A stretch of DNA of 64,000 nt. Origin: Escherichia coli. GTDB lineage: Bacteria > Pseudomonadota > Gammaproteobacteria > Enterobacterales > Enterobacteriaceae. The position numbers were made by a program. Below, one piece after another: positions 37,901 through 40,900 of the stretch. The stretch's first letter is position 1, and every line of letters starts with the position of its first letter. The DNA lies in NCBI RefSeq assembly GCF_017348835.2, contig NZ_CP071375.1. The stretch is one strand, 5' to 3'.

Positions 37901-40900
37901 GGGCAAAAATACAGAACCCGGTGTCAATAAGTTTTCCTTTTGACACCTCATTTTTTAACTGCTGTGTAACAGCCTGTTCTGCTGTCAGTTCCCATCTGGC
38001 AATAAGCAATTTCTCCTCATAGTCGTCTTCGCTATCGCCATCAGGCACATCGTTTTTACTTCTCCTCAGATACGATATGTAAAAATCGCGCCAGGCATCC
38101 AGATCCAGTTGCCCTCGCTTATTCGATATCGGGGCACCCGGCAATTTCTGCAATCTGCGAAGCTGGCGATCGGTCAGACTTAAATGCCTGGCAACTTCAG
38201 TCTGCGTAGCCACTCCTCACCTCGCAAAAACTCTCACCTCACAATCACAACAAAACCGGTCATGTCCGGTTTACATGTCTGTTTTTTGTTCATGTCCGGT
38301 TCACAGAAGACCTGTTTTTATATTTTTCATATAGTTAACTTGAAGAGAAACCGGACATGGATCCCGGAAAATTTTCATAAATAGCGAAAACCCGCGAGGT
38401 CGCCGCCCCGTAACCTGTCGGATCGCCGGAAAGGACCCACGAAAATGATAATAATTATCATCTACATGAGGTTTATCACGACATGTGTGTACGCCATCAA
38501 ACCACGAGAAATAATCAATTATTACGCAGGTATCGTATTAATTGATCTGCATCAAATTAGCGTAAAAGCAACTTCAGATAATACAAATCAGCAACACTGA
38601 ATACGGGGCAACATTATGTCATCAAAGAACAGAACCCGCAGAACAACAACCCGCAACATCCGATTTCCAAACCAGATAATTGAACAAATTAACATCGCTC
38701 TTGACCTGAAAGGTTCAGGTAATTTTTCAGCGTGGGTTATTGAAGCCTGCAGAAGAAGATTAATTAATGAAAAATATTCTCAATTTGTACCCAACAAAGA
38801 CAAACACGACCAGAGCACCTGTTCAGACAGGTTTACTTAAACGACTTATATATGACACAAAAAGCGACCACTAAAGTCGCTTTTTCTTATGGTAACAGGC
38901 AATAACTCTCTCAGATATTTTTTAGCATTTTTTTGACCGCGCGTTTCCGGACGTATTCTGTTCTCCTGTCCCTTTATATCGTCGGAATACCCGCCGCTCT
39001 TCAAATCCCATTCCCAACTCAGAATGTAGTCTGTTGACCGCTTGTTTTATTTCGGTCAGGTTCACCGGTGAAACCGGAGTCCGGCGCGCCTTACGCAAAC
39101 ACTCTGCTCGTTTCTGTGCCGCCACTTTTCTTTTCTGGTCATCACTTAGCTGTACCATCACTTTTGCCCATCGTTCAGCTGCTCTCCGGTACAGTCCTTT
39201 TTTCTCCAGACATTCTGCCACGTGATCATGTAGCATAAGTGACCTCCGATTATCTACAGACTGCCATCCTGAATTTACCTTCCCTTAATGAAATAACAAT
39301 AAAAAACAAACCACGCAAAAACAATAAAATAACACACAAAAAAAACTAAATAATAAACAAAAATAATCACCTTATTTTATTATTTTTTGAGGGGGCAATT
39401 ACTGAACAAAAAACGCTGACTATATACTCAAAACCAAACAACTATTCTGCCAATCAGGTATCATGGCAACACACGGAATTACCGTGTTTTTGCCTTCTCT
39501 GCCCATACAATACGGGCATATACTTCATACTCTATTGTAATATTTCTATCCATGCGCCCCACTCCATTTACCTGTAAATAATATTCAAAATATTTATCAC
39601 AGAAATCGTTTTTGGCCATGAACTGAGCACACTATAAAGTCCGGAACTGACTCTTTGTTAAATTACCTTAACGTTACCAGTAACACCTTCATAACAAAAC
39701 ATCACGGTATACACTGGGTACGGATATATTCCTGTGCTCCTTCCAGTTGCTTCTGCATTGCCATCAGCCGTTCTCTGAGGATGAAATAATCCCGTTCAGC
39801 GGCTTCTGCCAGTCGGGGACCGGTTGCATTATCCACGCCGGAGGTGATGGGGGCTTTACGCAAGGAGCCTGGACAGTTGGCGTTGATGCGCAGGCGCTTA
39901 CGACCAGCGGCAACATCAGCACGCAGAGTTTCATTTTCAGCTCTCGCATCGGCTAATTCCCTCGAGTATCTGGCATCAAGTGCAGCGACATCACGCTGGC
40001 GTACCTGCATATCAGTAATTGTCGCGTTCGCCAGCTCCAGCTCACTGGCTTTTTTATCGCGCTGCTCTTTGTAGATGATGGCGTGATCACGGTAATGATT
40101 CAGCCCCAGACTAAGCGCACCACAGGCCACCAGCAGGACAATGATAACCACGCACAGAACACGGTTCATATCACCACCAACGGATTGCCCAGACCAGAAC
40201 AGCAATGGCCACAATACGAATGGCAAAAGCTGCCGCTCTTGTTAAATCCAGACTGGCTGGCGTCTCCACTTCAATGCCTTTCATAATGGACAACCTCAGA
40301 AAGAATCTTTTATACTTCCTCACAGGGAAAGTACCTCCCTACCCATAATTTCTCCCTTGCCTTACTCAAGGTCAGAAAACACAAAACCCCGCTTGCTGCC
40401 AACAAACGGGGTTTTTACTTTTATTCACTTAGGTTTTACCAGTTTTCAGGATTTCGTGTTATCCACCCGCGTTGGCCAACGTCATTTTTCAGGAAAATAT
40501 TCTGCTATCTGTCGATGTCCCAGCACGCCAGCGCGCTCTCCTGGTCACGCCGTGAGACCTGACCGTAGCAATTATTTGAACGGATACGGCAGTCTCTGCC
40601 ACCGTCCTTAATCCACCAGCGAATCGCCTCACAGGCACCTTTTCGATCGCCTGCATTAATTCGTTTATAAAACGTCGACGGGAAGCACTTACCGGGGCCA
40701 ATGTTGTACGGACAGAATGACGCGATCCCCGCTTTCTGGGGTTCGGTCAGCGGCACCCGGATGTTTTTCTCCACCCATGCCAGCGCCTTGTCACGTTCGA
40801 TGGCATTAACCCGGTCGCATTTTTCCTTTGACAGCTTCATGCCAGGAATAACAGGCTTACCATCCACCAGAATGGCACCACGGCAGATGGTCCAGATCCC

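Follow-up and report, generated by a model that had tools for sequence, protein, structure and literature searches.

The three group 1 pch genes, which code for homologues of the activator PerC, are needed for full expression of ler and of the enterocyte effacement locus (LEE; espA) as well as for adherence (PMC6265319, PMC4456613), and their own expression is raised by SOS induction, while the effect of the homologues PchD and PchE on LEE is small (PMC6265319). PchA, which is prophage-borne and turns on the LEE of enterohaemorrhagic and related E. coli, can activate the LEE1 promoter solely in its state of repression by H-NS/StpA/Hha/YdgT, displacing H-NS there and both lowering and remodelling its occupancy; with Ler, it causes nle loci, among them the nleC-nleH-nleD region, to be less occupied by H-NS (PMC4764244). 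The inputs reported for pchA are Lrp with butyrate, LrhA and a LeuO feedback (PMC4456613, PMC7279287), and the small RNA (sRNA) DicF has been described in reviews as a translational activator of pchA (PMC7873438, PMC7769764). Here we analysed a stretch of 64,000 nucleotides from the Escherichia coli contig NZ_CP071375.1 (the window, by which we mean the whole of this stretch), in which a 104-codon open reading frame (ORF) on the minus strand is, with high confidence, a pchA-type group 1 pch gene, carried as a moron in the lysis-cos slot of a ~51-kb lambdoid prophage at serU. What the gene is, where it is located, how it works and how it is tied to nle effectors is already known from work published between 2004 and 2019; the locus repeats a well-characterised regulator exactly, at the place on a prophage and with the companions that are usual for it, and has little weight as a discovery.

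Identity and function of the pch gene product

The pch ORF occupies 38922-39236 on the minus strand, with an ATG start and 104 codons followed by a stop. Its product begins with MLHDHVAECLEKKGLYRRAAERW... and contains, at residues 13-23, the KGLYRRAAERW signature from which an earlier note on this DNA had recognised a regulator of the PerC family. The Pfam search proposed in that note was run and was positive for PerC (PF06069, E=4.4e-44, 149 bits), with residues 1-89 of the protein on model positions 1-89 of 90, and a match to phrog_994 was obtained in PHROGs (E=1.4e-45), whereas no NCBIfam model matched the protein. In RefSeq the product is named 'PerC family transcriptional regulator' (WP_001303878.1). 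The identical protein is found on at least 1000 public contigs, with 'PchABC family transcriptional regulator' among its names.

An alignment with the Pch proteins, also proposed earlier, assigned the gene to a particular allele. The comparison with group 1 covered PchA and PchB of E. coli O157:H7 strain Sakai. All 104 amino acids and all 315 nucleotides of the coding DNA are identical to those of Sakai pchA (ECs_1091), and the 485 nt upstream show 5 mismatches; Sakai pchB (ECs_2182, on prophage Sp11) differs from the window coding sequence by a single base, which results in V6L. Since pchB is strongly diverged in the A+T-rich stretch upstream of the gene, where the window matches the pchA version, the window locus is the pchA allele and, judged by its sequence, has the regulatory region of this allele as well.

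The conserved core of the family was taken from an alignment of 59 sequences of distant homologues; an exhaustive homologue search had returned 82 cluster representatives, and a word-indexed protein search close relatives only. A19 and W23 are invariant in the 59 aligned sequences, and A7, L10, E11, G14, R17, R18, A20, R22 and C46 are each conserved in at least 90% of them. The window protein has all 11 of these core residues, and the KGLYRRAAERW signature forms the centre of the core.

It could be argued that the ORF is instead a PerC homologue that does not activate LEE, similar to PchD or PchE, or that it is decaying on a prophage that has become defective and plays no part in regulation. 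The weak effect of those two proteins on LEE (PMC6265319) is in line with this, as are the frameshifts that the closest RefSeq record shows in the tape measure, capsid, portal and integrase genes and the insertion sequence (IS) insertions and degraded nle genes in the window. However, the protein and coding DNA are those of pchA, a functional representative of group 1, the Shine-Dalgarno (SD) sequence, upstream region and terminator are intact and almost as in Sakai, and every nearly invariant residue of the family has been kept. At the level of the sequence this alternative is already refuted, and we consider it very improbable.

As a pchA-type gene, the window ORF would work as has been shown elsewhere for the identical protein. 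The 104-aa Pch would bind the LEE1 (ler) promoter region and displace or remodel the complex of H-NS, StpA and Hha, and the de-silenced LEE1 would turn on Ler, through which the type III secretion island of LEE and effectors from outside LEE would be switched on. Activation of LEE1/ler by the window gene is what we infer from this identity. The suggestion that a prophage of this kind helps to regulate virulence in addition to supplying effectors has been established in published work on identical genes (PMC6265319, PMC4456613, PMC4764244).

A different view of the mechanism would be that Pch works mainly via protein contacts, with H-NS/Hha or with RNA polymerase, through a tetratricopeptide repeat (TPR)-like helical domain and not through sequence-specific DNA binding. 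The AlphaFold model of Pch, obtained with the 59-sequence alignment (mean predicted local distance difference test score, pLDDT, 83), is compatible with such a domain: its N-terminal unit of three helices (residues 5-50) is predicted with confidence (pLDDT 94-97) and is followed by a fourth helix (residues 60-73) and a basic tail at low confidence. The sequence search of the PDB with Pch gave no relative, and the Foldseek comparison of the model with the PDB gave no significant match. In this respect the predicted structure agrees with the published view that Pch has no homology to, and no resemblance with, known DNA-binding proteins (PMC4764244). On the other hand, chromatin immunoprecipitation finds PchA at LEE1 DNA both with and without H-NS/StpA, and PchA leaves the binding of H-NS at gadE unchanged (PMC4764244). 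We regard a mode of action mainly via protein contacts as unlikely, and binding of Pch at the LEE1 promoter region remains our preferred reading.

The slot between cos and the spanin genes

The position of pch between cos and the spanin genes, as the earlier note had it, was confirmed on both sides. A 45-nt sequence that we take to be the lambda left end (GGGCGGCGACCT...) has an exact match on the minus strand (38364-38408), with the 12-nt cohesive end GGGCGGCGACCT at 38397-38408, and 100 shuffles gave 0 matches. This lambda-type cos site lies just upstream of the genes for the small (Nu1, 37704-38213) and large (A, 35804-37789) subunits of terminase, both on the minus strand in the ORF list. 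On the other side of pch, the Rz spanin gene with embedded Rz1 (39764-39949) was found among the ORFs at 39702-40226 on the minus strand; it is named 'lysis protein' in RefSeq, and the Sakai annotation has 'endopeptidase' and 'lipoprotein precursor' at this place. Beyond Rz/Rz1 comes the lysozyme gene (40505-41038; ORF list and RefSeq). The order in the window is Rz - pch - ylcI - cos - Nu1 - A.

Of the 5,426 complete E. coli genomes compared, ~660-670 contain the pch locus at a coverage of at least 80%. Many other E. coli prophages have both flanks in common with it, that of ylcI/cos (to ~38750) and that of Rz (from ~39712), and have unrelated genes between them, such as TonB-family, DUF1398, KilA, HAD-hydrolase and hypothetical genes, and the interval 38750-39712 is a hot spot of alternative cargo among E. 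coli prophages. Morons are accessory cargo, dispensable for phage growth, and the bor gene of phage lambda is located in the same lysis-cos slot. With its shared flanks and unrelated middles, the segment of ~960 bp that comprises pch, the A+T-rich upstream region and a 46-aa ORF therefore behaves as an alternative moron.

Two ORFs between cos and the spanin genes were left out of the earlier note. The first is a gene of the YlcI/YnfO family (38616-38840, plus strand), convergent with pch, which was identified by NF041551 (34.5 bits for a cut-off of 30), phrog_949 and RefSeq. The second is the 46-aa ORF between Rz and pch (39479-39619, minus strand), which starts with MAKNDFCDKYFEYYLQVNG... and matches phrog_2157 over its full length (E=2.3e-37); it is kept in Sakai Sp4 and Sp11 and is without annotation both in RefSeq, from the Prokaryotic Genome Annotation Pipeline, and in Sakai.

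At the convergent junction of pch and the ylcI/ynfO gene there is a bidirectional terminator hairpin at 38859-38885 (AAAAAGCGAC-7 nt-GTCGCTTTTT), which was missed by the terminator scan and revealed by folding, and which folds on either strand with z-scores of -2.8. Another stable hairpin was seen at 39465-39495 (GGCAA..ACACGG-AAUUA-CCGUGU..UUGCC, z about -3 to -4), directly after the 46-aa ORF, with a T-run on the plus strand only, that is, antisense to pch. The idea of a small RNA on the plus strand with its end at this hairpin (39471-39487) was considered and rejected, as it had no Rfam support, only a weak promoter match and nothing else in its favour; within 38200-39800, Rfam gave no match either at its gathering scores or with the limit relaxed to E=1.

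The A+T-rich upstream region and the control of pch

The presumed promoter, regulatory region or leader of pch is an A+T-rich region at 39249-39440 on the minus strand, defined by tract statistics and by a GC content of 22-28% in 100-nt windows across 39250-39450. The ~200 bp of A-tracts described in the earlier note are indeed present before the ORF: the 204 bp of 39237-39440 contain 97 A and 48 T (71% A+T), with nine runs of A or T, each 4 bases or longer, that cover 48 bases. Among equal-sized windows in the 64 kb, only 1.6% are as extreme in A+T content, 0.6% in the number of runs and 0.13% in the bases within runs. Because pch is on the minus strand, the tracts are T-tracts on its sense strand. 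Direct and inverted repeats in the region were of low complexity only. Between this region and the gene is the SD sequence GGAGG (39243-39247, minus strand), read from the sequence 7-11 nt before the pch ATG and the same in Sakai pchA.

H-NS prefers A+T-rich DNA with long tracts, as is generally known and is stated in the introduction of PMC4764244. The earlier note had called the region typical of H-NS-silenced promoters, and its A+T content and tracts agree with that description. The helical phasing of the A-tracts does not, since an AAA periodogram at 10, 10.5 and 11 bp was not above shuffles (fractions 0.08, 0.40 and 0.78), and the resemblance is one of base composition. On this composition, silencing by H-NS may plausibly extend to the promoter of pch itself.

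It is also possible that the A+T stretch is not an H-NS-silenced promoter, but a transcribed leader or a binding region of the Lrp/LrhA type, or that pch is expressed mainly by Q-dependent late read-through when the prophage is induced, with no specific part for H-NS at this site. The sole sigma-70-like match on the sense strand, a weak one at 39469-39441, is located upstream of the A+T stretch, for which reason the stretch could be a leader and not a promoter. The lack of significant helical phasing points in the same direction, and so does the literature searched, which together with the supplements of PMC4764244 gave neither data on occupancy by H-NS upstream of pch nor anything direct on control of the pch promoter by H-NS; the direct regulators that have been reported are Lrp and LrhA (PMC4456613). 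Read-through, in turn, would be consistent with the orientation of pch, which is co-directional with the late genes, with the hairpin between the 46-aa ORF and pch, which has no U-tail on the sense strand, and with the increase of group 1 pch expression upon SOS induction (PMC6265319).

However, an A+T content of 71-78% with long tracts is the composition favoured by H-NS, and the response of a PpchA-pchA-PLEE1 sensor to butyrate was confined to a strain with hns deleted (PMC7279287), a dependence on hns for which silencing of PLEE1 alone could account. Furthermore, pchA-type and pchB-type loci are nearly identical except for an A+T-rich block of ~115 nt, ~45-160 nt before the ATG (39290-39420), so that they diverge exactly here, and the diverged block is T-rich on the sense strand in both. 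Divergence in which T-richness is kept appears compatible with selection on composition, and the diverged stretch could be the seat of the known differential regulation of the two genes. In view of this evidence, we think that a role of the stretch other than that of an H-NS-silenced promoter is possible but rather doubtful.

In the reading that we prefer, pch would be expressed from signals of its own in the A+T-rich region before it and, by its identity with the Sakai counterparts, which respond to Lrp/butyrate and LrhA, would be expected to receive the same inputs. Read-through from the late operon is to be expected in addition, because pch is co-directional with it, and late transcripts antiterminated by Q upon SOS induction should continue into pch.

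Control of pch may extend to translation. The gene for the DicF sRNA is located on the same prophage as pch (57423-57474, plus strand; Rfam RF00039, 76.7 bits, full length), and Sakai Sp4 likewise pairs DicF with pchA on one prophage. It has been reported that an anti-SD inside the pchA coding sequence sequesters the SD, and that DicF pairs at the anti-SD and releases it (PMC7769764, PMC7873438). The window pch mRNA is the same as the Sakai pchA mRNA, and within its coding sequence the best partner computed for the SD region is GGACUCCGGUU (39072-39082, minus strand; +155 to +165), a candidate anti-SD that pairs with the SD region at -12.4 kcal/mol. Nucleotides 3-17 of DicF, in its single-stranded 5' part, are complementary to the flanks of this candidate (+149 to +173). 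These pairings came from windowed and contiguous-pairing searches, which replaced a whole-length RNAduplex comparison of DicF and the mRNA that had given uninformative duplexes with long loops. The computed anti-SD and the flanking complementarity to DicF fit the published model, and in minimum-free-energy folds the pairing of the SD with the candidate anti-SD is not consistently present. By identity with Sakai, translation of pch would be held back by pairing of its SD with this site in the coding sequence, and DicF from the same prophage would release it.

These elements could be joined into a wider proposal, in which a TPR-like N-terminal Pch module counters silencing via a protein partner (H-NS/Hha or RNA polymerase) and the prophage is a self-contained circuit of DicF, pch and nle genes, the output of which is set by an A+T-rich control region that is conserved in composition and divergent in sequence. 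We consider this combination quite unlikely, and both the TPR-like module and the self-contained circuit would apply equally to the Sakai reference genes and are not specific to the window.

The prophage, its host lineage and known systems

The prophage spans ~11.0-61.9 kb of the window and has yodB on its left flank and tRNA-Ser, mtfA and tRNA-Asn on its right, which places it at serU. Its late, lysis, pch and packaging genes are all on the minus strand. The earlier note had put pch on the same prophage as nle effectors, and this was borne out: an effector cluster with the order nleB2 - nleC' - nleH' - nleF, taken from the RefSeq annotation of the matching stretch of strain PE164, is located beside the tail-fibre genes at 11723-14880 on the minus strand. 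Three of its four nle genes are degraded. The sole intact member is nleF (11723-12292, 189 aa), whereas nleH is frameshifted and its longest ORF stays under the NCBIfam cut-off, nleC is reduced to 96 aa of its N-terminal part, and an IS5-family element (14408-15462) with a transposase ORF of 322 aa (14437-15405, NF033579) interrupts nleB2. RefSeq PE164 lacks this insertion; the additional element aside, the window is 99.99% identical to PE164 across the nle region. An IS3-family element was also observed in the late region (42277-43586), between the holin gene and a gene for a SASA-family esterase, and the ALIL frameshift pseudoknot matched by Rfam at 42612-42728 lies within it. Rfam also matched STnc100 downstream of the tRNA cluster of the prophage (45681-45853, minus strand), the sok antitoxin next to hokD (50169-50343, minus strand) and rseX in the chromosomal flank (1125-1214, plus strand).

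The closest sequenced genome is that of PE164, a pig isolate (NZ_CP114128.1), which has two identical pch copies on two sister prophages (record positions 1879423-1929219 and 3037041-3078341). The sister prophages are nearly identical over the part corresponding to ~21710-42277 of the window. Positions 1902-22858 of the window correspond to 3.02-3.04 Mb of the PE164 record on the plus strand and positions 18391-64000 to 1.93-1.88 Mb on the minus strand. The 1.9-Mb prophage copy in RefSeq lies between tRNA-Ser/hya and tRNA-Ser/mtfA. The mosaic implies either a large inversion by recombination between the two prophages, or a different assembly or sister strain from which the window was taken. 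Further differences are an IS3 copy in a porin gene of RefSeq PE164, near 600-1900 of the window and absent from it, and the few shared positions (19604, 23376, 24911 and 35671) at which the window differs from both PE164 prophage copies. RefSeq reports frameshifts in the tape measure, major capsid, portal and integrase genes of one sister prophage and in the terminase large subunit gene of the other, which could be decay or homopolymer errors. At the end of one sister prophage (record 1927799-1928692), tccP2 and an espV fragment stand in place of the nle cluster; the near-identical sister prophages therefore differ in their effector cargo.

PE164 appears to have ler/LEE1, that is, the target of the regulator. 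A probe made of the hchA coding sequence and ler/LEE1 found two matching places in PE164 for a median of one per genome, a number that counts places only, and known LEE-positive O145 strains also gave two places. Two other chimeric LEE probes failed, as they met porin paralogues and a repeat that we took to be an enterobacterial repetitive intergenic consensus (ERIC)-type element upstream of LEE1. Besides the weak promoter match upstream of the A+T tract, by which the tract may be a leader, and the absence of H-NS occupancy data from the literature and supplements searched, two points from this comparison weigh against our overall reading of the locus: LEE is taken to be present from the number of places found with the probe, and the window departs from collinearity with PE164 as assembled in RefSeq. 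Nothing that we saw speaks against the identification of the gene. The strain is probably a LEE-positive attaching and effacing E. coli with at least two pchA-type copies. What the window adds is that a lambdoid serU prophage, in a lineage near a pig isolate, has the master virulence switch of O157:H7 together with its activating sRNA and a partly decayed effector cluster, which is of use for annotation and pathotyping.

Among known systems, the window locus is closest to Sakai pchA on Sp4, with which it shares the entire protein and coding DNA, 99% of the upstream 485 nt including the pchA-type A+T stretch, the downstream terminator and the presence of DicF on the same prophage. Unlike the window, Sp4 has the pchA-lysis segment inverted beside IS629 and ISEc8 and apart from the terminase genes, whereas here the canonical Rz - pch - ylcI - cos - Nu1 arrangement is intact, the prophage is at serU and the host belongs to the lineage of a pig isolate. 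Sakai pchB on Sp11 has the same Rz - pch - terminase order, with nleG effectors beside the Sp11 tail fibres, but its A+T-rich stretch is the strongly diverged one and that of the window is the pchA version. Lambda bor and other lysis-cos morons occupy the same slot downstream of Rz and before cos, and are likewise accessory cargo that is expressed from signals of its own and stands out from the flanks in base composition; bor, however, is unrelated cargo and opposite in direction to the late genes, with which pch is co-directional. The PerC protein of enteropathogenic E. coli, founding member of PF06069, belongs to the same family, has the same GLYRRAAxRW core and also activates the LEE1/ler promoter (PMC4764244, PMC4456613). 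It differs in being encoded in the perABC operon of the pEAF plasmid and in being needed for LEE only under particular conditions (PMC4764244), and most of the plasmid homologues found are less than 60% identical to the window Pch.

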